The notes: generated by a model not told the origin, from the sequence alone. A DNA stretch of 64,000 nucleotides from an uncultured Candidatus Saccharibacteria bacterium (GCA_964494105.1 CAZBQI010000001.1:67126-131125), one strand, 5' to 3'; positions 1 through 19,682 are shown, counted from the stretch's first letter. Translations and numbers: made by a program.

Positions 1-8
1 ATTAAGAT

Positions 9-323
9 ATGGAAAACCGGGATGATATTTTAAGTCTCTGGCCGGAACTGCACAAAGTAGTTTTTGAAAATGACAAAGCTAGAGTAATCAAATCATCTTT
101 ACCACCGGGTAAAAAACTATCCATGCATTGGCATCCCAGTCACGTCGGAATTATTGTTAAAGGCAGTCGAGTCAAGATTACTAAGCCAAATTCTGAACCC
201 GAAGAAGTGGACGTTGAGGACGGTGCATTTTTTGAAGGAAGAGAGGGTACTCATGCTGTTGAGAACATTGGTACAACAACCATAGAAGAGTACTTTATTG
301 AATTTAAGTTGAAAAATGGCTGA
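9..323 (+). CDS. cupin-domain protein
   Basis: 104-aa ORF. Conserved-His beta-barrel pattern (HWHPSHVGIIVKG ... GTHAVEN) typical of small cupins. Confidence 0.5.
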   Translation: MENRDDILSLWPELHKVVFENDKARVIKSSLPPGKKLSMHWHPSHVGIIVKGSRVKITKPNSEPEEVDVEDGAFFEGREGTHAVENIGTTTIEEYFIEFKLKNG

Positions 324-843
324 GTCTTTCACAAGTATTTTACTAGAGGGAAAAGTAAATTCTCTCGGTCGTACGCAAGAAGTGGTGGAAATAGTTTTGC
401 ATGACAAGTCTCGATTAGCCGAGTTGTATCAATGTTTATTTGAAGACGACCAGTGGTTGCGTATGCGGGCCGGTGATGCGCTAGAGAAAGTCTGTCGCGT
501 GCACCCCGGGTGGTTCACTGGCTACCTGTCAAAGCTATTCAACGAGATGGCCAAGATAGACCAGCCATCTATTCAGTGGCACTTAGCCCAAATGCTAGGT
601 GAGATTGAGCTCGATGCAAGCTACCAGCAAAAGGCCAATAATTTGCTTTGCAAAAACGTATCTACGACAGATGTCGACTGGATAGTAGCTGCTAATTCGA
701 TGATTACACTAGTACAGTTCGCAAAAAGCCGTAAGATTGATGCAAAAACTGTGATGAATCTTTTAAAGGTTCAACAGCACCATCATTCGAATGCAGTATG
801 TAAAAAAGCCACGAAGCTTTTAGCTGAGCTCCAAAATCGCTAG
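316..843 (+). CDS. HEAT-repeat DNA alkylation-repair-like protein (AlkC/AlkD-like)
   Basis: 175-aa all-alpha ORF with helical repeats (WLRMRAGDALEKV...). Similarity is judged by eye only. Overlaps the upstream ORF by 8 nt. Confidence 0.35.
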   Translation: MAESFTSILLEGKVNSLGRTQEVVEIVLHDKSRLAELYQCLFEDDQWLRMRAGDALEKVCRVHPGWFTGYLSKLFNEMAKIDQPSIQWHLAQMLGEIELDASYQQKANNLLCKNVSTTDVDWIVAANSMITLVQFAKSRKIDAKTVMNLLKVQQHHHSNAVCKKATKLLAELQNR

Positions 844-857
844 TGTAGTATAAATAC

Positions 858-1268
858 ATGGGTTGGTTTTATTTAATCGGTTACGTGATAATTATCGGTG
901 TGGCTACCTTTCTGATGAAGGTGTCGCTAAAAGACACCACACCTTACCAGCTAAATCTACTTATGGGGATTGGTATGCTACTTACCGGGATTCCAGCTCT
1001 GTGGTTGGCGCAAAAAAACTTAAAGATACCCCTAAAAGAGGCACCCATGGGCCTAGGTATTGGATTAGCAATGGCTATTGGCTCCCTTTTGTTTGTATTA
1101 GCAATTAATAAACTACCAGCCGGCCTTACTGCCGCTATTGCCAGCTGCTATGTGGTTGTAGTAGTGGTTCTTTCGTGGTTAATCCTTAAGGAATCGTTCG
1201 ACGTGGTAAAAGCTCTGGGGATTGTGCTTACGCTGGGCGGTGTAGCGATATTGGCGTATAAAGGATAG
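858..1268 (+). CDS. small EamA/DMT-family membrane transporter (4 TM)
   Basis: 136-aa ORF with four hydrophobic helices and an EamA-like G/A-rich TM pattern. Confidence 0.45.
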   Translation: MGWFYLIGYVIIIGVATFLMKVSLKDTTPYQLNLLMGIGMLLTGIPALWLAQKNLKIPLKEAPMGLGIGLAMAIGSLLFVLAINKLPAGLTAAIASCYVVVVVVLSWLILKESFDVVKALGIVLTLGGVAILAYKG

Positions 1269-1271
1269 CAA

Positions 1272-1529
1272 ATGAAGCTCTCGAAAAACTTAACAACAGT
1301 TACAACTCTCAGCAAGGTGCTGGCCGTAGCTCTATATTTTGTCGTAATGATGATCGGGTTCTTTCTAGGAGTGCAGTACCAGAAAAGCCAGGTTACAAGT
1401 CAGATAGATTCTTATGAAGAATGCGTTGAAGCGGGCGGTAGAGTAGCAGAAAAGTATCCTCCTACGTGTTATTTAGATGATGGACGTAGTTTTGATTCGG
1501 ACGCGCCTGCACCGGTTATAATTGATTAA
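1272..1529 (+). CDS. hypothetical membrane-anchored small protein
   Basis: 85-aa ORF with one N-terminal TM helix. Starts 4 nt after the upstream stop. Confidence 0.35.
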   Translation: MKLSKNLTTVTTLSKVLAVALYFVVMMIGFFLGVQYQKSQVTSQIDSYEECVEAGGRVAEKYPPTCYLDDGRSFDSDAPAPVIID

Positions 1530-1541
1530 GAAAGGTTTTTT

Positions 1542-1907
1542 ATGTATAAAACAGCAATACTGATTGGTTTAATTTCATTTGTAATATTAGCGGTGCTTGG
1601 CTTTGGTTGGCGTAGATCGTTTACCGAAAATGGCGATGCTCCGTTACTGCGAGGCATAATGCTAGAGAGTGGCTGGGTTGCCCAAACTGATACTGGCGCT
1701 ATCGGGTGCCTTTCGATAACGGTAGAGTCGAGCTACAAAGGGTTACCTTTTGTTAATAGTGTTAATCAAAGTGGATGCAATGGTGAATATGTCGCCACAA
1801 ATACGACAGCAAAAATATTGAATGGTGTAGCTGTATTTCTGCTGAGTTTATTATCTGTATTTTTATCGGTTAAGCTATTGCGAAATAAAAAAGTAAAATC
1901 TAGTTAA
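1542..1907 (+). CDS. hypothetical membrane protein
   Basis: 121-aa ORF with TM helices at both ends. Confidence 0.35.
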   Translation: MYKTAILIGLISFVILAVLGFGWRRSFTENGDAPLLRGIMLESGWVAQTDTGAIGCLSITVESSYKGLPFVNSVNQSGCNGEYVATNTTAKILNGVAVFLLSLLSVFLSVKLLRNKKVKSS

Positions 1908-2451
1908 TATCCTGCACAACCACATTAGCGACACTCTCAGCATCAGCTAAAATATGTTCGTCCGGCTGGGGCCCGCCGTTGCTGATAATTAACCAAACAT
2001 TGCTCTTTAGTACGTTTAATTGGCCGAGCTCCGGGTTCCAAAAAGCCATTTCACCAATACCGGTTACTTCTTGGGCACCTTCGGGCACTGGATCGAATTG
2101 CGCCTGGTTGCTTTCGGCACCAGCTTCGGTTTTAGGTGAGCGGGCCAAAACGCTAGCGGTTTTAATGCCGGATACCGTACCGGTGTCGTAAGTATATGTA
2201 CAACTACTGACTGTCACATCATCATTACTGGCTGCTGTTTCGCCACTTTCGCCTTTCGTAGTGGTGCTACCTAAAATGGCTTGAGCTTCTTCAAGGGTGA
2301 AGATTTCGCAAGCATCGATTATCTGAAAATTTTGAGTGACTTGTTCGTTCTGCACAGTCTCTTGCGGATTTGGCTTGAAAATCAACCACCCAGTAATCCC
2401 CAAAGTGACAATTATTAACGTGACTACAATTATTGTTAAGGATTTCTTCAT
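1900..2451 (-). CDS. hypothetical N-terminally anchored secreted protein
   Basis: The ORF track starts it at 2553. The internal ATG at 2451 (MKKSLTIIVVTLIIV...) gives a canonical signal-anchor, and the extension would overlap the divergent neighbour. End overlaps the convergent upstream ORF. Confidence 0.4.
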   Translation of the reverse strand: MKKSLTIIVVTLIIVTLGITGWLIFKPNPQETVQNEQVTQNFQIIDACEIFTLEEAQAILGSTTTKGESGETAASNDDVTVSSCTYTYDTGTVSGIKTASVLARSPKTEAGAESNQAQFDPVPEGAQEVTGIGEMAFWNPELGQLNVLKSNVWLIISNGGPQPDEHILADAESVANVVVQDIN

Positions 2452-2524
2452 AAACACCCTTTTTCTTAATACATTCAGTGTAACAAATGATTTAAGAAAC
2501 AAAGTAGGCTGTATAATATTACCA

Positions 2525-5467
2525 ATGCAAAAACGAAGGTGGCTAAACACCAAATTAGTGCTTGGCGTAGGAATTATATTTGTTTCTATATATACTTTTG
2601 CTACTCATTATTCACCGGTGCGCGCAGATCTAACGACTGGTTTACTTGTTCACTACACCTTTGAAAATACTAGTGGTAGCAATGTATACGATAGCTCAGG
2701 AAATAATCGAACTGCTTCACTAAGCGGTAATGCCACAATAAGTAGTGGCCTTTCAGGTAGCGGCGTTAACTTTGATGGAACTTCTGGCTATATGCAGGTG
2801 CCTCATCAGTTGGTGCCTGGCCAGCAGGCAGATTTTACCTACAGTTTTTTTGTTAAAGCCGATGCAGGTGGTGATAGCAATCAGTACTTAATGGGTCAAA
2901 GTAGTAGTGGCACGTTCAATAATGATTGCTTTAGCGTAGATTACGACAACGTAGGCAAGTCTTTAAAAGTACTAGCTACAAATAATGGTAATGGTGCTCA
3001 AATAACAACCTCGGCTGATCTTTCGAACTGGACGCATATTGCAGTCACAAATTCGCATACTTACGGTGAGTCGCAAGTATATGTCAATGGAGTTGCTACT
3101 TCAGGCCCAGAGGCGACATGTAGTCAGGCTCTCGCCAGTCAGTTTATGATTGGTAGAGCGCCTTACAGCGGTTATAACATGGAATTAGACGGGTCAATGG
3201 ACGAGATCCGGGTTTATAATCGCGTATTAAGCGCCGCCGAAATTTACCAGTTAGCTACCGAAGGCAATACGAATTCAGTTAACATAACTAGCCCAAGCAA
3301 TGGCAGTACTGTTAAGGGCTCTGTGAATCTTACTGCTAGTACGAGCGGTAGCCCTGCAATTGCATCGGTTAAGTATTATGCCAATGGAAGTGCACTTAGC
3401 ACGGCACTAACAACAGATCCCTATACATATACTTGGGATCTTAGTGCTGTCGAGCAAGGAGAGTATTTGCTGGTGGCTGTTGCTACCGATGTAAATGGGG
3501 TTACTGTGCCATCACAAGCCGTATTAGTAACGGTCGACAACGACCCAACAATAGCCATGCAAAGCTCCAAGAGTATACAGAAAACATCGAACAGGATTGC
3601 TTGGATAACTAGTGAGCCCACCACAGCGCGCGTGGATTATGGGTTAACAAGTTCATATGGTTCACAGACTACTCTTGATACTTCACTAAGTTATTATCAC
3701 GAGCAAACTCTGTCTAATTTAACGCCTGGTACAACTTATCATTACCGTGTCACATCCGTGGATTCTAATGATAATAGTGTTAGTTCTAGCGACTCGACCT
3801 TTACTACAATTAGTGATGCCACAGGTAATGAGTGGCATGTTACAACGAGTGGAACGTCTGGTGGAAATGGCTCAGTTAGTAACCCGTGGGATTTAGCGAC
3901 GGCTTTAGCGCAACCAGTTGCTGTTCAGCCAGGTGACACAATTTGGCTACATGGGGGGAACTATAGTGGAAACTACTCCAGCACGTTAACTGGTTCTGCC
4001 ACAGCGCCAATAGTTGTGCGTAACTACAACGATGAAAGAGTGATTATAGATGGTGGAGGTGGAAGCGGTTTTGCCCTGACTGTATATGGCTCGGATGCTT
4101 GGTACTGGGGTCTAGAAATTATGAGTTCTGGACTCGATAGGGATGTGTCTAACGCTGGATCGAGCCCGCCGGACCTAAACCACGCTTATGGATTTTATAT
4201 TTTTGGTGTTCGTACGCGGTTTATAAACAACATTGTTCACGACACGTCGCAGGGTTTTGGCTTTTGGACACCTGCAGTTGACTCAGAGCTTTATGGCAAT
4301 TTGGTTTACTACAACGGCTGGGAAGGTCCTGATCGTGGTCACGGACACGGTTTATATGTTCAAAATAATACCGGCATGAAGTACCTAGCTAATAATTTTG
4401 TATTTAGTAACTTTGGCTGGGGATTGCATGCTTACACTGAGGGAGGTCGCATAAATAACATTCAGACCGATGGCAATACTTTTTTTGAAAACGGTAAAAT
4501 CTCTGCCTTTGGATACACAACCAATCTGTTACATGGCGGGCTACAAATTGCTCAAAATCCAATGATTTTTAACAATGCAACCTATTACCCTCAAGCTGGA
4601 GGTGGTGGGGCGATAGGTCTTGGTTACAGTGCCGGATGCAATAGGCCAACGGTTGAGGGTAATTACTTTGCGGCAGAATCGGCCATTGATATTGGTGGTA
4701 GTTGTACTCATGAAACGTTTAAGAACAACTTATTTTATGGCAGTGTACCTGGTGGGCTTGAGACTAATTTCCCAGATAATACATATAAAACTAGCGCTCC
4801 TACTACTAATGCTACGCTACTGCGACCAAACCAATACGAGCCCAATAAAACAAATCTCACTATCTATAATTGGCAACAACTCAATAGTGTAGATGTGAAT
4901 CTATCCGCCGTCCTTACCGCTAATGATACGTACGAAATACGCGATGTTCAGAATTACTTTGGTGACCCAATTGCTAGTGGTACCTATGGGGGTAGTACAG
5001 TTTCTATTCCTATGAATTCAACGGCCGTTACAGCTGCTATTGGGTCTAATATACCGGTAGCACCAACTCATACCGCCAAAGAATTCGGCGCCTTTATGAT
5101 AATAAAGACCGGACACACCGACCCGGCTGATGAACCTCCAAGCGATGGTGCACCATCCTCAGGCGATGCCACTACAAATTCCACGAATAACACTAGTGGT
5201 TTTGGTAGAGTGTTGTCTATTATTAATACAGTTACACAATATGCTACAGGACAGTACTTCTTTGCCGATTCAGTTGTGGGCGTATCAGAACCAAACTCTA
5301 CTGACAGCACTGAAAAGAAAGTGGTAGAGGCCGGTCCTTTTGTTCAAGAAAATGCCTTAAAACAAATGTTCGCATCTCAGTGGCGTCCATTTTTAGCTAT
5401 TGGCGCTTTGACTCTAGCTGGAGGCTTGGTGGCAATTTATCTACGAAGGAAAACTAGAGTACATTAA
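2525..5467 (+). CDS. cell-surface LamG / Ig-like / FN3 / right-handed beta-helix protein with C-terminal TM anchor
   Basis: Start trimmed to ATG 2525 (MQKRRWLNTKLVLGVGIIF, signal-peptide-like). It has a LamG / concanavalin-like signature (DGSMDEIRVYNRVLSAAEIYQL), then Ig-like and FN3-like beta modules. A parallel beta-helix repeat region follows (NNIVHDTSQGFGFW, GNLVYYNGWEG, NNFVFSNFGWGLHAY). The C-terminus is a TM helix plus RRKTRVH. Confidence 0.7.
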   Translation: MQKRRWLNTKLVLGVGIIFVSIYTFATHYSPVRADLTTGLLVHYTFENTSGSNVYDSSGNNRTASLSGNATISSGLSGSGVNFDGTSGYMQVPHQLVPGQQADFTYSFFVKADAGGDSNQYLMGQSSSGTFNNDCFSVDYDNVGKSLKVLATNNGNGAQITTSADLSNWTHIAVTNSHTYGESQVYVNGVATSGPEATCSQALASQFMIGRAPYSGYNMELDGSMDEIRVYNRVLSAAEIYQLATEGNTNSVNITSPSNGSTVKGSVNLTASTSGSPAIASVKYYANGSALSTALTTDPYTYTWDLSAVEQGEYLLVAVATDVNGVTVPSQAVLVTVDNDPTIAMQSSKSIQKTSNRIAWITSEPTTARVDYGLTSSYGSQTTLDTSLSYYHEQTLSNLTPGTTYHYRVTSVDSNDNSVSSSDSTFTTISDATGNEWHVTTSGTSGGNGSVSNPWDLATALAQPVAVQPGDTIWLHGGNYSGNYSSTLTGSATAPIVVRNYNDERVIIDGGGGSGFALTVYGSDAWYWGLEIMSSGLDRDVSNAGSSPPDLNHAYGFYIFGVRTRFINNIVHDTSQGFGFWTPAVDSELYGNLVYYNGWEGPDRGHGHGLYVQNNTGMKYLANNFVFSNFGWGLHAYTEGGRINNIQTDGNTFFENGKISAFGYTTNLLHGGLQIAQNPMIFNNATYYPQAGGGGAIGLGYSAGCNRPTVEGNYFAAESAIDIGGSCTHETFKNNLFYGSVPGGLETNFPDNTYKTSAPTTNATLLRPNQYEPNKTNLTIYNWQQLNSVDVNLSAVLTANDTYEIRDVQNYFGDPIASGTYGGSTVSIPMNSTAVTAAIGSNIPVAPTHTAKEFGAFMIIKTGHTDPADEPPSDGAPSSGDATTNSTNNTSGFGRVLSIINTVTQYATGQYFFADSVVGVSEPNSTDSTEKKVVEAGPFVQENALKQMFASQWRPFLAIGALTLAGGLVAIYLRRKTRVH

Positions 5468-10322: not shown

Positions 10323-10994
10323 ATGGAACAGACGCCTAGAGAGCAACAGCCCGTAAAACAGAAAAGCAAATTTTCACCAACTCTAAATGTAATACTAATG
10401 GGGATATTAACGCTTGTATTGGCTATTGCTGCCGGCTATTTCTATTTGGAGTATAAGAAAATCAAAGAAAACCCACAGATTGTTACCAAGCAAGAAACTG
10501 AAGCATTGGTAGAGCAAGCAAACAAACTCATTGATTTGCCAAAAGACGAAACACCTCAGGTTGCAACCGTGCTAGATAAAGAAAAGCTCAAGGATCAGCC
10601 GTTTTTTGCTAATGCTCAAAATGGCGATAAAATACTGATTTATACCAAGGCCAAAAAAGCGGTAATTATACGACCGAAAGAAAATCGCCTGATTAATGTG
10701 GGGCCGATTGCTATTGATCAGAAAGCGCTAGTATCTGTTGCGCTGGTAAACGCCGGCGGAGACGTGGCAAAGGCCGAAAAGTCGATAAACGATGCCCTCA
10801 ACGCATCAGTTAGCATTAGTGGTAAGTCAAACGCCAAAACCAAGAATGTTAAGCAAATGATTGTAGTTGATGTTAGTGGCCAAAACGCCGAAGCTGCCGA
10901 ACAGATAGCCAGCGCAGTAGGTGGTGGCGTAGGTGCACTACCAAGTGGCGAAAGTGCCCCAGACGGCGCAGCCATTGTTGTATTCGTTAAGTAA
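10323..10994 (+). CDS. membrane-anchored LytR_C (cell-envelope-related) domain protein
   Basis: N-terminal TM helix. The C-terminal region (KNVKQMIVVDVSGQNAEAAEQIASAVGG) resembles a LytR C-terminal domain. Confidence 0.45.
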   Translation: MEQTPREQQPVKQKSKFSPTLNVILMGILTLVLAIAAGYFYLEYKKIKENPQIVTKQETEALVEQANKLIDLPKDETPQVATVLDKEKLKDQPFFANAQNGDKILIYTKAKKAVIIRPKENRLINVGPIAIDQKALVSVALVNAGGDVAKAEKSINDALNASVSISGKSNAKTKNVKQMIVVDVSGQNAEAAEQIASAVGGGVGALPSGESAPDGAAIVVFVK

Positions 10995-11076
10995 AACATA
11001 CCACTATAATTTATTTGACGAACAGCCTTTCTACCTCTATTATATAAGCATAAGTTAAGTGTGAGAAACCAAACAA

Positions 11077-11451
11077 ATGGCTGTGGGAAAAAAAATACTT
11101 ATTATTGAAGACGAAGTGTCTTTGCTGAATCCTTTGTTACAGAAGTTTAAAGATAAAGATTTTGATGTACATGGCGAAAAGAACGGTCGAGACGGACTGA
11201 AGAAGGTAAAAGCACTAAAGCCAGACATGGTTTTATTGGACTTAGTAATGCCCGAAATGGACGGCTTAACAATGCTACAGGCGCTACGCTCTGATTCTGC
11301 AATTAAAAACACTAAGGTCATTGTGTTAAGTAATCTAAGTGATGTCGAAAAAGCCAGCAAAGCAGCTGCGCTTGGTGCACTAGACTACATAGTGAAATCC
11401 GATTGGAAAATTAACGATATTGTTAAGCGAGTATCAGAAAAGCTGGCTTAG
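11077..11451 (+). CDS. stand-alone CheY-like response-regulator receiver domain
   Basis: 124 aa with ILIIEDE, the phospho-acceptor region LLDLVMPEMDG and a conserved downstream K, and no output domain. Its stop is 2 nt before the giant-gene ATG. Confidence 0.8.
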   Translation: MAVGKKILIIEDEVSLLNPLLQKFKDKDFDVHGEKNGRDGLKKVKALKPDMVLLDLVMPEMDGLTMLQALRSDSAIKNTKVIVLSNLSDVEKASKAAALGALDYIVKSDWKINDIVKRVSEKLA

Positions 11452-11453
11452 AC

Positions 11454-14400
11454 ATGTCTAAGCCAAAACAATCAAACGCGCCCAAGAGCAATCTTAAAGT
11501 TCCTGATAATTCGCCGGTTACAGGGGCCGATTATTCAAATGCGGTCGGGACGCTACTATTAGAGAATTCAAAAAACAGCGCTCGTTTGCGACGTTGGGGT
11601 CTTTTAATGCTAGGGCTTCAGCTCGCCGGAGCAGCCCTACTAATAGTTACTGGATTGTCGTTCTTTAATACCTACTACAGCCAAAAGAATATCGAAAAAA
11701 TAAAGAAAGACCCACTTGGCGAAGTAAAGATAGATTTCCAAGACATTGCCAAAGGATCGATTGGGTTTGATCAGCTTGATCCAGGCGTTATTACCAAAAT
11801 TGAACAGATAGATCGCACTCTTTTAGGTCAGCAAGGTAAGGTTGGCCCCCAGGGGCCGGCCGGCTCGACAACCGGTTCGGTGATTAGTGTTGGGTCAGGC
11901 GCCGGCCTTACCGGTGGCACAATAACATCGCGCGGCACATTAGCAATTAGCGCACCAACCTGCGCCGCTAATGAACGGCTTAGCTGGACTGGCACGGCAT
12001 TTGCCTGCCAAGCTGTTGCCTCCGGCACTGCCTCCGGCACCAGCCCGATTGTGTTCGATAGCAACACTGGCGATATAAGTTGCCCCACGTGCCTGACTAC
12101 AGTTGGTATTGCGTTTTCGGCAGCAGCCGATAGTGGTACAGACCAAAATTTGAATATTGGCGATACCCTAAGCTTAATTGGTGGTAACGGTATTTCTACC
12201 GCTGCGTCACTTAGCAATAACATCACCTTTAGCCTTGTCGATACTGCCGTCACGCCCGGTTTCTATGGTACCACCAGCTCTGTACCGTCGTTTACCGTTG
12301 ATGCCCAAGGCCGAATAACTGCTGCCAGTGATACGGCGATTAGTATTAATGCCAGTGCTATTTCTGCGGGAACTCTATCTGTTACCCGTGGTGGTACCGG
12401 TGTCGATGGCTCAGGTGCTACCAATGGCCAGCTCCTGATTGGTAACGGCAGTGGTTACAGTTTAGCTAATCTTACGGCTACCGGTCCTTTGGGCGTTACC
12501 AATGGTGCCGGCACCATAAACCTCACTTGTGCAACTTGTGTTACGACCAGTGGTAACGGTGCCATTACCAGTTCTGGTGGCGATGTCACATTAAGCGGTA
12601 CTACAACTGGCCGGTTAATTGGCTCGGGCAATGTTAACTTTGATCTATCTTCTACCGGAGTGGTGGGTGCTACCTACGGTTCAGCCAGTTCAGTACCCGT
12701 CTTTACAGTTGATGGTAAGGGCCGCATTACTTCAGCCAGTAATACGGCGATTGCTGGTTTAACTAGTTCTAATTTATCGGGCAGTGCTGCCATCACTAAT
12801 GCCCAGTTACAAAATAGCGTTATCACCTTTAATTCGGGTAACGGCTTAACTGGTGGCGGGGCGGTGTCGCTTGGCGGCAGTACTAGCTTGGCCATTAGTG
12901 CGCCTACTTGTCTTTCAAACGAACGGCTTAGTTGGAGCGGGTCGGCCTTTACCTGCGCAACCGTTGCTGCAGGCGGTAGCCAGGCGGCGAACACCTTTTT
13001 TGCTGGGCCGAGCTCCGGCGGTGCGGCGGCGCCTGGTTTTCGCGGAATTGTTGCAGCCGATTTAGGTACCGGCACAGCTAATTCGCAATCCGTTTTGGCC
13101 GGTAACCAAACTTGGCTGCCATTGCTTGATGGCGGCGGCAAGATTTTAACCAGCCTATTGCCTGCCAGTGGTTTAAATTATCAAGGATCTTGGAACGCTA
13201 ATACCAATACGCCAAGCTTAAGTAGTAGTGGCGGCGGTGGCGTACAGGGCGATTTTTATATTATTGACGTGGCAGGAACAACCTCGATTGATGGTAATAG
13301 CACGTGGAACGTTGGCGACTGGATTCTAAATAATGGCGCAACATGGGATCGGATATCAAATACAAATGCGGTTAGTAGTGTTAATGGTCAAACTGGCGCG
13401 GTAGTACTAGATAGTGATGATGTATCGGAAGGCGTCAGTAACTTGTACTTTACCAATGCTCGTGCCCGCGGGGCACTATCCGGCACCGGGCCGATTAGTT
13501 ACAATTCCGGCACTGGAGTAATTGATTGCCCAACCTGTGTTACCACTAGTGGTAACGGGGATATTGTTTCCGGTACAGGCCTATCAATATCTGGCACAAC
13601 TACTGGACGACTCATTGGTACTGGCAATGTGACTTTTGGCTTGTCGACGGCTGTACCAACAAGTGTAGTAAACGACACCAACGTTACGGGCTCGATTTCG
13701 GCTAATGCTTTGACGCTGGGTTGGACTGGTCAACTATCAACAGCCCGTGGTGGTACCGGTGTCGATGGCTCAGGTGCTACCAATGGCCAGCTCCTGATTG
13801 GTAACGGCAGTGGTTACAGTTTAGCTAATCTTACGGCTACCGGTCCTTTGGGCGTTACCAATGGTGCCGGCACCATAAACCTCACTTGTGCAACTTGTGT
13901 TACGACCAGTGGTAACGGTGCCATTACCAGTTCTGGTGGCGATGTCACATTAAGCGGTACTACAACTGGCCGGTTAATTGGCTCGGGCAATGTTAACTTT
14001 GATCTATCTTCTACCGGAGTGGTGGGTGCTACCTACGGTTCAGCCAGTTCAGTACCCGTCTTTACAGTTGATGGTAAGGGCCGCATTACTTCAGCCTCCA
14101 ACACCGCCATTGCCCTAAACGCCTCTGCCATTACCGCCGGTACCCTCAGTGTTACCCGTGGCGGTACCGGAGTAGATGGTTCCGGCGCCACCAACGGCCA
14201 GCTGTTGATCGGTAACGGTACGGGGTACTCTTTGGCCACGCTAGCCTCATCCGGGCCTATTGGTATTACTAACTCCGCTGGTGGCATTAGTATTGGTTGT
14301 GCAACCTGCCTAACAACCGGTACAACCTTATTTACCGCGGCTGGTGATGTTGGTGTAAACCAAAGCGTGACCCAGGGCCAAACCATTACCTTTATTGGTG

Positions 14401-16385
14401 GCGTTGGTTTAACCACTACAGGTTCTGCTACCCGAAATATGACAATAGATTTGGATAATACCGCCGTCACCCCCGGTTCCTATGGTACTGCTAGTTCAGT
14501 AGGCTCATTTACTGTAGATGCGCAGGGACGAATTATCGCTGCTAGCAACTCATCGATATCTATCAACGCCAGCGCAATTACAGCCGGCACCGGGTCGGTA
14601 TCATTCACTTCTGCAACATCCAATGCAATTTCGCTCGACTCTGGAACAACCGGCGGGATAAATATTGGAACAGGTGCGAACTCGAAGACCATTACCATCG
14701 GTAACACTACCGGTACAACCGGTATTAACATCGACTCCGGTAGCGGTAACATTAATTTGCGTCCTGGTGGTTCCGGGACAACCGCTAATGTCCAAATAGG
14801 TGCTGGCGGGGCTGGCTCGACAACGCCCGATTTATTGGTGCTTGATAGAAAAAGTAGTGCCGGTGACCCTGCCGGTACCAACGGTGCAATGTATTATAAT
14901 GCTAGCTCAAATAAATTCCGTTGTTTCGAAAACTCCACCTGGAGGGACTGTATCAAGGGGTCAATAAACCTTGGTCATGCGGCCACCTACGACACGAACG
15001 AAGCCCTTACTAATGTGGCAGCTTCTCAGGTGACTCTCGGTACGGTATCTGTTACGCCAGCATCGGATACTGGTGATGTCTATGTAACTGGCAACGCGGA
15101 TGTCTATAGTAGCAACAATACCGACCAAACATTTGTATTTACCATAGAAACCGGGTCAACTTGTACCGGTACGACTGTGGCGACAAGGTCATATACAATT
15201 ACTGCATCGAACTCCGCAACGGTAGGCCGTGGCTCACTTGTAGTAAGTGGTATTGTCTCTGACCCCGGTGAGTCTTCGCAGGCATATTCACTCTGCGCAT
15301 CAACTGCAACAGGTGATACCGATGTTCTGAACTGGCGTATCGAAGCATTGGTTATTGAATCAGCAGGTGCTGATGTTGCGGAGATGTATTATACGCACGA
15401 TGATGCCCGGCCCGGCGAAGTTGTAAGTATTGACGGCAGTATGAAGGCTGGTGTTCGTAGATCAAACGGCTCGTACGATCCTATGGTGTTGGGTATTATA
15501 AGCACAAAGCCAGGGTACGTTCTTGCTGATGCTGAGGGGGTCGACCCTACGGCTAGGCCGGTTATACTGGCTCTTGCCGGTCGTGTTCCAGTCAAAGTTT
15601 CGGACGAAAATGGGCCAATAAAGGCTGGCGATGCGCTGACACCATCGTCGATACCGGGCGTGGCTATGAAAGCTACCCAAAACGGCTGGGTACTTGGCGT
15701 AGCCATAGAAGACCAAAAGCCAGGAGCGGGCACCTTGATGACTTTTGTGAATAGATCTTGGTATACAGGGGGCAGTAATAACCCCCCCTCACTGACCGGT
15801 ATGAGTTTAGGCGATGCAGATTTACCTGGCATAAAATCAGCCCAATCCGAAGGTGTAAAGAACGGCTTGCAATCAGAAAATCCGGAGTTGGTTGCTCAAG
15901 CTTTGGGCATTTTAAATGATATTCAAAATACGGTGGTAACCCAGCAAACCCAGCTCAACGCACTTGAAGCTAATCAAGCCAAAGCCAGCTCGAATTCACA
16001 GCAGATTAACCAAGCGATATTTAATGGCGGTATTGTGGCCGGCGATGTAGAGTTCCAAGGCAACGCCACCTTTAATGCTATCGCCACATTCAAGGGTCAG
16101 AGTGTCTTTAAGGGGGGTGCTATATTTGAAGGAGACGTAGCAATTAATGGGCGCGTGAAGTTCGGTGCTAATGGATCGGGCGTGGCAACTGTACCAGCCG
16201 GCGCCACGAGCGTTACAGTTAGCTTTACTAGCCCGTATGACGGACGGCCAATTGTAAACTTAACTCCTATAGATTACGACGGGAAATTCAAACTTAGTGG
16301 CGCATCGGCCGGTGGCTTTACGATTGTACTAGATTCGCCCGTGCCAAGCCCGGTAGAGTTTAACTGGTTAGCGAGTGAAAATTAA
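11454..16385 (+). CDS. giant (1643 aa) membrane-anchored repeat fibre protein (tail-fibre-like beta repeats)
   Basis: A cytoplasmic N-terminus of about 50 aa is followed by one TM helix (LLMLGLQLAGAALLIVTGLSFF). A short Gly-X-Y run follows (GQQGKVGPQGPAG). There are then many Gly/Thr/Ser-rich repeats carrying recurring CPTC / CATC motifs, including a protein-level repeat present in two exact copies. The C-terminal part is non-repetitive, with a coiled-coil-like segment (LNALEANQAKASS). Confidence 0.7.
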   Translation: MSKPKQSNAPKSNLKVPDNSPVTGADYSNAVGTLLLENSKNSARLRRWGLLMLGLQLAGAALLIVTGLSFFNTYYSQKNIEKIKKDPLGEVKIDFQDIAKGSIGFDQLDPGVITKIEQIDRTLLGQQGKVGPQGPAGSTTGSVISVGSGAGLTGGTITSRGTLAISAPTCAANERLSWTGTAFACQAVASGTASGTSPIVFDSNTGDISCPTCLTTVGIAFSAAADSGTDQNLNIGDTLSLIGGNGISTAASLSNNITFSLVDTAVTPGFYGTTSSVPSFTVDAQGRITAASDTAISINASAISAGTLSVTRGGTGVDGSGATNGQLLIGNGSGYSLANLTATGPLGVTNGAGTINLTCATCVTTSGNGAITSSGGDVTLSGTTTGRLIGSGNVNFDLSSTGVVGATYGSASSVPVFTVDGKGRITSASNTAIAGLTSSNLSGSAAITNAQLQNSVITFNSGNGLTGGGAVSLGGSTSLAISAPTCLSNERLSWSGSAFTCATVAAGGSQAANTFFAGPSSGGAAAPGFRGIVAADLGTGTANSQSVLAGNQTWLPLLDGGGKILTSLLPASGLNYQGSWNANTNTPSLSSSGGGGVQGDFYIIDVAGTTSIDGNSTWNVGDWILNNGATWDRISNTNAVSSVNGQTGAVVLDSDDVSEGVSNLYFTNARARGALSGTGPISYNSGTGVIDCPTCVTTSGNGDIVSGTGLSISGTTTGRLIGTGNVTFGLSTAVPTSVVNDTNVTGSISANALTLGWTGQLSTARGGTGVDGSGATNGQLLIGNGSGYSLANLTATGPLGVTNGAGTINLTCATCVTTSGNGAITSSGGDVTLSGTTTGRLIGSGNVNFDLSSTGVVGATYGSASSVPVFTVDGKGRITSASNTAIALNASAITAGTLSVTRGGTGVDGSGATNGQLLIGNGTGYSLATLASSGPIGITNSAGGISIGCATCLTTGTTLFTAAGDVGVNQSVTQGQTITFIGGVGLTTTGSATRNMTIDLDNTAVTPGSYGTASSVGSFTVDAQGRIIAASNSSISINASAITAGTGSVSFTSATSNAISLDSGTTGGINIGTGANSKTITIGNTTGTTGINIDSGSGNINLRPGGSGTTANVQIGAGGAGSTTPDLLVLDRKSSAGDPAGTNGAMYYNASSNKFRCFENSTWRDCIKGSINLGHAATYDTNEALTNVAASQVTLGTVSVTPASDTGDVYVTGNADVYSSNNTDQTFVFTIETGSTCTGTTVATRSYTITASNSATVGRGSLVVSGIVSDPGESSQAYSLCASTATGDTDVLNWRIEALVIESAGADVAEMYYTHDDARPGEVVSIDGSMKAGVRRSNGSYDPMVLGIISTKPGYVLADAEGVDPTARPVILALAGRVPVKVSDENGPIKAGDALTPSSIPGVAMKATQNGWVLGVAIEDQKPGAGTLMTFVNRSWYTGGSNNPPSLTGMSLGDADLPGIKSAQSEGVKNGLQSENPELVAQALGILNDIQNTVVTQQTQLNALEANQAKASSNSQQINQAIFNGGIVAGDVEFQGNATFNAIATFKGQSVFKGGAIFEGDVAINGRVKFGANGSGVATVPAGATSVTVSFTSPYDGRPIVNLTPIDYDGKFKLSGASAGGFTIVLDSPVPSPVEFNWLASEN
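12385..12737 (+). repeat. 353-bp perfect direct repeat, copy 1 (inside the giant gene)
   Basis: Identical by eye, base for base, to 13744-14096. Encodes RGGTGVDGSGATNGQLLIGNGSGYSLANLTATGPLGVTNGAGTINLTCATCVTT... Confidence 0.9.
13744..14096 (+). repeat. 353-bp perfect direct repeat, copy 2 (inside the giant gene)
   Basis: Identical to 12385-12737. The offset is 1359 bp, a multiple of 3. A third copy diverged at synonymous sites starts near 14157. Confidence 0.9.
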
Positions 16386-18839: not shown

Positions 18840-19229
18840 ATGGATGCCAGGCTGAAAAGCACGATTCTTATTGTTGAAGACGAAATCCCTTTACAAAAAG
18901 TAGTTGGGTTTAAGCTCAAGAATGCCGGGTTTAATGTGATTTCTGCAAGGAAAGCCGAAGAGGCAATAAACTATATTAAGACTGCCGAATCAATTGACTT
19001 AGTTTGGCTAGACCATTACTTAATCGGTACGAAAACCGGATTAGATATTGTAAAAATAATCAAAAACAGCTCCGAGTTCAAACATATACCAATTTTTGTT
19101 GTAACCAATTCAGCTGACCTTAATAAGAAGCACGCATATATTAAATTTGGAATTGAAAAATATTTTATTAAATCAGACTTACGCCTAGATGAAGTAATAG
19201 ATGCTATTAAAGCCTCTCTAAAAGAATAG
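18840..19229 (+). CDS. stand-alone CheY-like receiver domain protein
   Basis: 129 aa with ILIVEDE ... LVWLDHYL and no output domain. Starts 10 nt after the kinase stop. Confidence 0.7.
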   Translation: MDARLKSTILIVEDEIPLQKVVGFKLKNAGFNVISARKAEEAINYIKTAESIDLVWLDHYLIGTKTGLDIVKIIKNSSEFKHIPIFVVTNSADLNKKHAYIKFGIEKYFIKSDLRLDEVIDAIKASLKE

Positions 19230-19286: not shown

Positions 19287-19682
19287 ATGGAACCTAATGA
19301 CAAAGGCAAAAAGAAAATACTAGTTGTTGAGGATGATAAATCTGTAAATGCAGCGATGAGTGCCGGCCTGACAAACAATGGCTATTTAGTTACAGCAAAA
19401 ATGAATGGCGCTGAGGGAATAGAAGCTACAAATACTAATGATTTTGATGTAATTATTCTCGACCTTACTATGCCAAAGATGGACGGGCTTGATGTGCTAA
19501 AAACACTTAAAGCCAATCCCAAAACGAAGCAAATACCAGTTATTATCGCGACTAATAACACGCAAACTGAGCTGGTTTATGAATGTATTGCCGCCGGCGC
19601 GCGCGATTACTTTATAAAGTCTGACATTACACTCATACAGCTATGCGCAGCTATCGACAAAGCTTTAGCTAGCATTGAATAA
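19287..19682 (+). CDS. stand-alone CheY-like receiver domain protein
   Basis: 131 aa with ILVVEDD ... VIILDLTMPKMDG ... K, and no output domain. Confidence 0.8.
   Translation: MEPNDKGKKKILVVEDDKSVNAAMSAGLTNNGYLVTAKMNGAEGIEATNTNDFDVIILDLTMPKMDGLDVLKTLKANPKTKQIPVIIATNNTQTELVYECIAAGARDYFIKSDITLIQLCAAIDKALASIE

Follow-up and report, generated by a model that had tools for sequence, protein, structure and literature searches.

How ultra-small, episymbiotic Patescibacteria (candidate phyla radiation, CPR) choose and hold their hosts is largely unknown: prior work on host attachment has centred on type IV pili, together with a small number of lectin-like proteins (PMC10633639, PMC11623550); one 'tail fibre-like protein' in CPR has received a passing mention, next to a pam pilus operon, in a 2026 preprint. 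The question is posed by a single gene in a 64,000-nucleotide stretch of the genome of an uncultured Candidatus Saccharibacteria bacterium (GCA_964494105.1 CAZBQI010000001.1:67126-131125), here called the window. The gene, an open reading frame (ORF) at 11454..16385 on the forward strand, encodes 1643 amino acids (aa) plus a stop codon, and a preliminary description had seen in its product a giant membrane-anchored repeat protein with the look of a phage tail fibre. What is such a protein, and what would it do for the cell? We give a probability of about 0.6 to the reading that it is a membrane-anchored chromosomal fibre made of phage tail-fibre parts, which serves a Patescibacteria cell, probably of the Saccharibacteria type, as an adhesin or for host recognition. 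Henceforth we refer to the protein as the fibre; a literature search found no characterisation of its family, and on this reading it is a good candidate for a molecule of host attachment.

A predicted single-pass protein with a large ectodomain

Searches of the whole protein against Pfam and NCBIfam returned nothing usable, phmmer found no match among PDB sequences, and a scan of genome contigs gave only an irrelevant match to Chitinophaga at 38% identity. A Kyte-Doolittle scan shows a single strongly hydrophobic stretch with 47 residues ahead of it and 1573 behind, in agreement with the topology first judged by eye (about 50 cytoplasmic residues, one transmembrane (TM) helix and some 1550 residues outside). 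The sequence fits an N-in membrane anchor. The tail ahead of the helix shares the motif SNAVGTLLLENSKNSxRxxRW with the closest ortholog (P0003); no Pfam domain was recognised in it, and a homology search with the N-terminal 140 aa gave no match. An LPASG at aa 569 is internal and was ruled out as a sortase signal.

Relatives of the fibre carry a TM segment that lies 10-105 residues from the N-terminus, in some instances behind DNA-binding domains: three proteins (P0063, P0072 at L010 5001-13121, and P0154) have one or two MerR/HTH_17 domains ahead of the helix at E 1e-12 to 1e-26, and three more (P0012, P0013 and P0031) have MerR_1 scores slightly below threshold. Because these relatives place a folded cytoplasmic domain before the helix, the helix is best taken as a retained anchor in the family. 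Some relatives can be described as a membrane-tethered helix-turn-helix (HTH) domain, a TM helix and then a tail-fibre ectodomain; the TM-bearing N-terminus of P0010, which is called as a separate 123-aa ORF (L004 5682-6053), gives a weaker MerR/HTH_17-type signal too.

An exchangeable tip ahead of a predicted self-cleaving chaperone

The C-terminal region was modelled as a monomer from an alignment of 121 sequences, and the model is a confident one, with a mean predicted local distance difference test (pLDDT) of 84. Along the chain the model shows a stalk-end motif, a beta-sandwich (model residues ~30-165), a second beta-sandwich (168-300), a long helix, a short beta-repeat and a final beta-sandwich (Table 1). 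Fold matches of the model comprise TNF-like lectins, Pgp3, BclA, C1q and the tip of Bdellovibrio Bd2734 (8okw), and it contains a TNF/C1q-like ten-strand jelly-roll, a fold employed in fibre tips, that superposes on TNF-like lectins. By elimination we infer that the TNF-like fold corresponds to aa 1167-1306; a profile of this tip alone found no match among PDB sequences.

The domain that follows (aa 1307-1440) resembles the self-removing end of gp12 of phage phi29. A profile of aa 1296-1470 matches two gp12 chains (3gqh, E 0.0028; 6qz9, E 0.0057) and lays D1307-V-A-E1310 on D692-F-A-E, the first residues of the cleaved fragment 3gqh; the D, A and E of this motif are each at least 90% conserved among the 121 sequences. 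The modelled fold is that of the solved C-terminal fragment of gp12, and 12 of 25 aligned relatives match Peptidase_G2 (PF11962; best E 7.7e-7). In mature gp12 the chain stops at residue 691, and virions lack the chaperone domain (PMC6542822, PMC9863714). Because of the gp12 alignment, the PF11962 matches of the relatives and the end of mature gp12, we assign the domain to the G2-type intramolecular chaperones, as a member by fold and cleavage motif rather than by its own Pfam score, and predict that it cuts itself off between A1306 and D1307. The long helix behind it is probably a coiled coil belonging to the same module, and the sequence from there to the C-terminus (aa 1521-1643) is conserved in 19 relatives, its final sandwich being modelled at a pLDDT of 86-98.

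Two peptidase families had been named in the preliminary description as worth a search. G2 is represented by the gp12-like autochaperone, recognised by profile and by fold; S74 fell away, PF13884 having no match in the fibre at E <= 1, and is present in relatives such as P0008, P0016 and P0047. The same description had called the last ~500 residues unique. Nothing else in the protein repeats them, but as a module they are conserved and widespread: the G2-like profile, searched against 1.84 billion cluster representatives (50% identity), picks out 31,264 at E <= 0.001, of which 26,199 reach E <= 1e-10. In most of the matches listed the protein is 1000-5700 aa long and the domain lies a few hundred residues before its C-terminus. 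Some homologs bear the Joint Genome Institute (JGI) name 'trimeric autotransporter adhesin'. The fibre is not of that kind: a YadA-type anchor and head or stalk domains gave no Pfam match, and its C-terminus is the G2 chaperone module.

Of particular interest is the segment between the stalk end and the cleavage site. The two flanking motifs (YYN..FRC..W..C and GAD[LV]AE) occur together in 22 proteins, the fibre included, and what lies between them ranges from 91 to 322 aa. Only 9 of the 21 relatives have the tip of the fibre (55-65% identity); the rest show no detectable similarity to it. The closest ortholog, P0003, has an unrelated tip, with a chaperone 58% identical to that of the fibre and a region just before the tip 63% identical. 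Receptor-binding proteins show just this pattern, an exchangeable cassette set between a conserved shaft end and a conserved chaperone, and the cassette is probably the receptor-binding domain.

One apparent variant, a PAS-fibre protein of 819 aa (P0122, L006 8001-10460), was not used: it joins the start of an FNR-like/PAS kinase to a fibre C-terminus at 'AGTNGAMYYN', with a different tip cassette, and probably represents either a chimeric contig or the outcome of a deletion between a kinase gene and a fibre gene that were neighbours.

A repetitive shaft with paired cysteines

Between the anchor and the stalk end lies a modular shaft (aa 140-1140) composed of 17% glycine, 15% threonine and 13% serine, with 6.7% charged residues. 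BLAST of fragments of the protein against itself gives many off-diagonal matches at 30-100% identity from aa 140 to 1130, so the Gly/Thr/Ser-rich repeats noticed at first sight are indeed there. The recurring units are RGGTG..LLIGNG, CxTC, GRLIG, YG..S.P.FTVD..GRI and ISAPTC...C; the cysteine-pair motifs, the ISAPTC..NERLSW.G.AF.C element and the YFTNARARG segment (aa 664-672) listed earlier could all be located. A short G-X-Y run, likewise reported, is present at only five triplets: it is not extended, and the Pfam Collagen family (PF01391) is not detected in the fibre. Several relatives do have PF01391 domains.

A super-module of ~400 aa, collinear with aa 281-700, is found in two copies in each of four relatives (P0002, P0004, P0005 and P0006). 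The fibre gene contains an exact direct repeat of 353 bp with abrupt boundaries, which could be a recent gene conversion or duplication, or a collapse in the assembly of the metagenome-assembled genome (MAG); recombination between the copies would remove 453 codons in frame.

All 18 cysteines lie after the helix and make up nine local pairs: five CxTC, two ISAPTC-x14-C, C1157/C1166 and C1237/C1281. The five CxxC motifs compare with 0.19 expected by chance, and none of 20,000 shuffles reached five. The motif [IL]x[IL]xC[PAST][TS]C occurs in 15 of the 16 best-scoring homologs, CPTC appearing 47 times; among the distant relatives listed (Bacteroidota-labelled or unnamed) it is absent and a Gly/Thr turn stands in its place. 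As the pairs are extracytoplasmic, even-numbered and conserved, their oxidation is plausible. In COMP, thrombospondins and matrilins, CxxC motifs next to the coiled coils link the chains in disulfide rings, and HxH motifs form metal sites in the gp37 and gp12 fibres of phage T4. The CxTC motifs could act in either way, as rings or by holding an axial metal: a two-residue motif of fixed spacing, present in every chain of a parallel oligomer, could join the chains covalently through Cys or through a metal on the symmetry axis. Both comparisons are pure analogy, and the CxTC of the fibre is set in a beta-strand shaft instead of beside a coiled coil.

The super-module (aa 281-700) was modelled as an AlphaFold2 (AF2) monomer from the long collinear segments of 40 sequences. 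The model (mean pLDDT 69, predicted template modelling (pTM) score 0.30) consists of isolated beta-hairpins in an extended chain, with one small confident beta domain at about aa 571-630 (pLDDT 84-97). One hairpin, with strands at model residues 210-214 and 219-223 (pLDDT about 80), is flanked by the cysteines of the second ISAPTC unit. Such an appearance is what would be expected of an intertwined fibre subunit modelled alone; it is no proof of a trimer.

Phage parts in a cellular setting

The likeness to phage tail fibres is borne out within the shaft. A module at aa 555-698, which carries the small beta domain and the motif VNG.TG.V.L...NLYFTNARARG, is common to phage minor tail proteins: phrog_31460 ('tail protein') matches aa 558-661 at E 9e-19, and tblastn against 50,697 phage records found 128 that match, all within this module and at 38-51% identity. 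The phages concerned are those of Gordonia, Rhizobium, Pseudomonas and Burkholderia, and the annotations of the 128 records read minor tail, tail or tail fibre protein. The largest cover of the whole fibre by any phage record is at most 9%. Among cultured phages the G2-like stretch (aa 1300-1422) finds weak matches only in the PA5oct-like and Atu_ph07 jumbo phages, where the proteins concerned are virion proteins.

The setting of the gene was read from 30 window ORFs compared with Pfam. Its neighbours are a LamG/Big_7 protein, an RND-type transporter, VKOR, an L,D-transpeptidase, a 223-aa protein and a receiver; downstream come a PAS histidine kinase, two receivers, and then phosphoribosyl pyrophosphate (PRPP) synthetase, primase, sigma-70 and Pol I. 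Because these neighbours are cellular, the fibre is not taken for a prophage gene, and no module of phage structural genes was found around it among the ORFs scanned. The G+C content of the fibre gene region (window 12001-16000) is 0.50-0.51, against 0.42-0.45 in the flanks; the excess is accounted for by the Gly/Ala/Thr/Ser codon load of the shaft and so is not evidence for foreign origin. The best homologs of the fibre come from MAGs labelled Candidatus Saccharibacteria and Dojkabacteria, with contigs that reach about 1 Mb, and it is by such labels that the organism is treated here as a Patescibacterium, probably Saccharibacteria-like.

How the fibre would work

A role in host attachment is favoured because of the fold of the tip, the swapping of tips, the lifestyle of cultured Patescibacteria (PMC10633639) and the precedent of the MAT fibres of Bdellovibrio (PMC10769870). 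Most likely the fibre is trimeric and stapled by disulfides. Its chain would be exported through Sec and stay anchored N-in. Three chains would be brought into register by the G2-type chaperone at the C-terminus, with its domain, coiled coil and beta-sandwich, upon which the shaft would fold as an intertwined trimer; the chaperone would cut itself off at its predicted site, leaving the TNF-like tip as the free distal end. The CxTC pairs would be oxidised, plausibly as inter-chain disulfide rings, and the C-x14-C pairs would staple hairpins. The tip would bind a glycan or a protein on the surface of the host bacterium, so that a swap of tip would retarget the fibre, and the receiver and kinase would control its production or use.

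Several observations weigh against this account. The shaft model is of low confidence and describes a monomer only, and a PDB fold search with it gave no match at E < 1. The assignment to G2 consists of a profile match at E 0.003 together with fold similarity, and the fibre itself has no match to PF11962 at E <= 1. The TNF fold was placed on the tip by elimination, the fold matches carrying no query range. Finally, Gly66 and Ser68 satisfy a loose -3/-1 rule, by which signal peptidase could cut after Ser68.

Receiver and kinase: regulation or contact sensing?

In 7 of the 11 loci with readable context, the gene immediately upstream of the fibre gene is a stand-alone receiver (REC): the window, L001 (P0003), L004 (P0010), L005 (P0014), L007 (P0011), L011 (P0012) and L012 (P0007). 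Six of the seven also have an adjacent PAS-HisKA-HATPase kinase, and the genomes with the kinase-receiver-fibre arrangement are labelled Saccharibacteria and Dojkabacteria. The arrangement is missing from four loci (P0002, P0053, P0047 and P0072); P0047 ends in an S74 domain, and P0053 and P0072 do carry a G2-like domain. A divergent Xre-type HTH gene is found upstream in three loci as well (L007, L011 and L012).

The REC stop codon stands 2 nucleotides before the ATG of the fibre, and the junction is spanned by a predicted RNA hairpin (UGGCUUAGA-CAUG-UCUAAGCCA) with the stop codon in its 5' arm and the ATG in its tetraloop. The hairpin could enforce translational coupling; it is not seen at the L001 junction. 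Promoter-like sites in the region, including the one upstream of REC, are no commoner than in shuffles. The receivers retain the positions of the acidic pocket, the phospho-acceptor Asp, the Thr/Ser and the Lys. The kinase of the window has no TM segment and opens with ~250 FNR-like residues, in which FAD_binding_6 and NAD_binding_1 score slightly under the Pfam cut-offs, as they do in the L001 ortholog; this suggests that it senses a cytoplasmic redox or energy signal.

Most simply, the receiver and kinase co-regulate the fibre. The fibre may itself signal, though support for this is weak. It would then be a contact sensor, in which binding at the tip, or tension, is relayed through the helix to the tail, and the tail acts on the receiver and the soluble kinase; in relatives the relay would end at the fused MerR-type DNA-binding domain. 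Such a role can coexist with adhesion. The recurrence of the receiver and kinase beside the gene, the narrow gap and hairpin at the junction, the MerR/HTH_17 domains ahead of the TM helix in relatives (with the three cases below threshold) and the tail motif shared with P0003 are all as a sensor would have them. Yet the redox-type module of a kinase without a TM segment suggests that the signal arises in the cytoplasm rather than at the fibre, the stand-alone receivers lack an output domain that would reveal their target, the 47-residue tail has no recognisable domain, co-transcription may be mere co-regulation, and the two-component genes are missing from the four related loci named above. 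We therefore regard contact sensing as unlikely, while ranking it first among the alternatives. The wider proposal that goes with it, that the fibre and its relatives form a Patescibacteria class of single-pass receptors whose ectodomain reports host contact through tail, receiver and kinase or through a fused MerR-type domain, is held to be just as doubtful; if it were true, the class would couple host recognition and the switch to an attached lifestyle in one molecule.

Other readings of the fibre

A shade less probable than contact sensing is a structural or self-directed fibre: a nap, a spacer or a cell-cell tether, like the exosporium nap formed by BclA or the tip fibrils of ENA. The short collagen-like run of the fibre and the collagen domains of its relatives would suit such a role, but the exchange of tip cassettes among close relatives is the signature of a receptor-binding protein, and the nearest fold matches are carbohydrate-binding TNF-like lectins.

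Improbable, in our judgement, is a secreted protein with a cleaved signal peptide, released or held at the surface by a partner such as the 223-aa membrane protein, and perhaps acting as a depolymerase. The small residues at 66 and 68 could serve signal peptidase, the hydrophobic segment of some relatives lies within 10-20 residues of the N-terminus as in a signal peptide, and the membrane protein recurs beside the fibre gene. P0003, however, has kept the sequence ahead of the helix, other relatives have folded HTH domains in its place, and searches of Pfam, NCBIfam and PDB gave no catalytic family. An n-region of 47 residues and an h-region of 23 are, moreover, atypical of Sec signal peptides, which counts against secretion.

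That the fibre is a true tail fibre of a phage, prophage or tailocin lodged in the chromosome is the least credible of the alternatives: the tail-protein matches at aa 555-698, the G2-like domain in virion proteins of jumbo phages and the gene's G+C content (0.51 against about 0.43-0.45 around it) speak for it, but no phage record spans more than 9% of the protein, a membrane helix with a cytoplasmic tail is foreign to virions, capsid, portal, terminase, baseplate and integrase genes were not found nearby, the kinase-receiver-fibre arrangement recurs across several genomes, and the G+C excess matches the codon load.

Features of the locus and neighbouring genes

The features of the locus are collected in Table 1. 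Beyond the two-component genes, the anchored host-attachment fibre we favour could have an assembly or anchoring partner in the 223-aa single-pass membrane protein. Copies of it (39-64% identity by tblastn) lie at L001 8887-9546, L003 13215-13880, L005 15121-15768, L006 979-1626 and L010 4068-4601, and LytR_C is found below threshold in the C-terminal half of the family, at the same position in three of four orthologs.

Oxidative folding had been credited in the preliminary description to the VKOR gene of the window. This link is not conserved: VKOR lies on the opposite strand, about 2 kb from the fibre gene, and none of the 11 related loci fetched has a counterpart, so VKOR was rejected as a partner of the locus. 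Its presence probably means that the organism can oxidise exported cysteines. The 30 window ORFs compared with Pfam included no recognised pilus gene, and tRNA and Rfam scans of the window gave no match.

Upstream in the window, the LamG/Big_7 protein is another large, probable surface protein, with two paralogous copies on L006 (1758-7630), one of them 60% identical. Two related loci hold further large genes: on L005 a G2-type fibre is flanked by two Peptidase_S74 proteins (1-3222 and 12916-14979), and L008 (1-4877) encodes two giant proteins in tandem. Adjacent fibre genes in related genomes suggest a repertoire of fibres per cell.

Table 1. Features of the fibre locus, in window coordinates.
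Feature	Position	Strand	Remarks
LamG/Big_7/purple-acid-phosphatase-N protein, 1043 aa	2336-5467		upstream
223-aa single-pass membrane protein	10323..10994	+	recurs beside fibre genes; possible partner
Promoter-like site TTGACG-17-TATTAT	11015..11043	+	upstream of REC; consensus match only
Stand-alone receiver (REC) gene, 124 aa	11077..11451	+	PF00072, E 1.4e-22
9-bp RNA hairpin	11444..11465	+	-15.9 kcal/mol; z -3.7; 0/200 shuffles
Fibre gene, whole	11454..16385	+	1643 aa plus stop codon
Predicted cytoplasmic tail, aa 1-47	11454..11594	+	motif common to P0003; no Pfam match
Single hydrophobic helix, aa 48-70	11595..11663	+	Kyte-Doolittle 19-mer maximum 2.16; RLRR on N-side; read as signal-anchor (N-in)
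Short collagen-like G-X-Y run, aa 125-139	11826..11870	+	five triplets
Gly/Thr/Ser-rich modular shaft, aa 140-1140	11871..14873	+	self-BLAST repeats
First ISAPTC-x14-C unit (ISAPTC..NERLSW.G.AF.C), aa 166-185	11949..12008	+	
CPTC, aa 210-213	12081..12092	+	motif kept in closest relatives
Exact 353-bp direct repeat, copy 1	12385..12737	+	DNA identity
CATC, aa 359-362	12528..12539	+	motif kept in closest relatives
Second ISAPTC-x14-C unit, aa 482-501	12897..12956	+	Cys flank predicted beta-hairpin
Module common to phage minor tail proteins, aa 555-698	13116..13547	+	PHROG and tblastn
CPTC, aa 692-695	13527..13538	+	motif kept in closest relatives
Exact 353-bp direct repeat, copy 2	13744..14096	+	offset 1359 bp, in frame
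CATC, aa 812-815	13887..13898	+	motif kept in closest relatives
CATC, aa 949-952	14298..14309	+	motif kept in closest relatives
Stalk-end motif GTNGAMYYN...NKFRCFENSTWRDC, aa 1141-1166	14874..14951	+	conserved; Cys 1157/1166
Swappable tip cassette, aa 1167-1306	14952..15371	+	Cys 1237/1281; assigned TNF/C1q-like jelly-roll
Peptidase_G2-type intramolecular chaperone/autoproteolysis domain, aa 1307-1440	15372..15773	+	predicted scissile bond between A1306 and D1307
Linker and long helix (about aa 1462-1519)	15774..16013	+	helices at model residues 323-334 and 338-380
C-terminal beta-repeat and beta-sandwich of chaperone module, aa 1521-1643	16014..16382	+	
Soluble histidine kinase, 790 aa	16458..18830	+	FNR-like module, then PAS-PAS-HisKA-HATPase
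Two further stand-alone receiver genes	18840-19229 and 19287-19682	+	Pfam

Significance and comparison with known systems

The fibre locus offers a predicted cleavage site, an exchangeable tip of ~140 aa that could set host range, a conserved cysteine motif and a recurring gene arrangement. Given how common the G2-like domain is in giant metagenomic proteins, a functional assignment would carry over to a large family, and if tips track hosts, host-epibiont pairs could become predictable from metagenomes.

Three known systems resemble the fibre in part. The gp12 of phi29, its pre-neck appendage or tail spike (3gqh, 6qz9, PF11962), provides a known parallel to the chaperone: the D-x-A-E of the fibre aligns with the gp12 cleavage point between S691 and D692, and in both proteins the domain follows a receptor-binding structure, a probable one in the fibre and a trimeric one in phi29, where the domain is removed after assembly. 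However, gp12 is an 854-aa beta-helix enzyme of the virion without a membrane anchor, whereas the fibre has a predicted anchor and an additional coiled coil and beta-sandwich behind the domain, and is cleaved by prediction only. Spikes of the endosialidase/K1F type and 'tail fiber domain-containing proteins', with S74 domains (PF13884), work on the same principle, a C-terminal chaperone that trimerises the fibre and then cuts itself off; many relatives of the shaft end in S74, but the fibre has no S74 and its chaperone is of the G2 type. BclA of Bacillus, with its long collagen stalk and a C1q/TNF-like domain at the C-terminus, has its N-terminus bound to exosporium proteins and no C-terminal chaperone; in contrast to it and to the tip fibrillum of F-ENA, the collagen-like run of the fibre is only five triplets long and its stalk is a beta-strand repeat.

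The nearest parallel is with the MAT (mosaic adhesive trimeric) fibres of Bdellovibrio bacteriovorus, described in PMC10769870, from which the following is drawn in part. These trimers resemble phage fibres, are displayed on the cell surface, end in S74 chaperones or TNF-like tips and help in the handling of prey. Like the fibre, the MAT proteins (Bd2734, Bd2439 and Bd3182) are encoded by the cell, measure ~1000 aa or more, resemble tail fibres and belong to a bacterium that lives on bacteria; a self-cleaving chaperone is present in part of each family, and the TNF-like lectin matches assigned to the fibre tip, with the Bd2734 tip among them, liken it to the adhesive tips of MAT fibres. There are also differences, as far as that account covers them. 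Surface display has been shown for MAT fibres and is predicted for the fibre. A MAT protein starts with a signal peptide and an invariant beta-rich domain of ~130 aa, the fibre with a cytoplasmic tail and a TM helix. The MAT chaperone is S74 (SDxxxK), with TNF tips occurring in chaperone-free fibres, whereas in the fibre a TNF-like tip is followed by a G2-type chaperone; and the CxTC motif and the kinase-receiver operon of the fibre are not described for MAT fibres in the parts of PMC10769870 used here. Set beside the MATs, the fibre thus combines a way of working like theirs and a known kind of chaperone, G2, with four features by which it differs from them: a tail-bearing anchor, a G2 domain after a TNF-like tip, the CxTC motif and a two-component operon.

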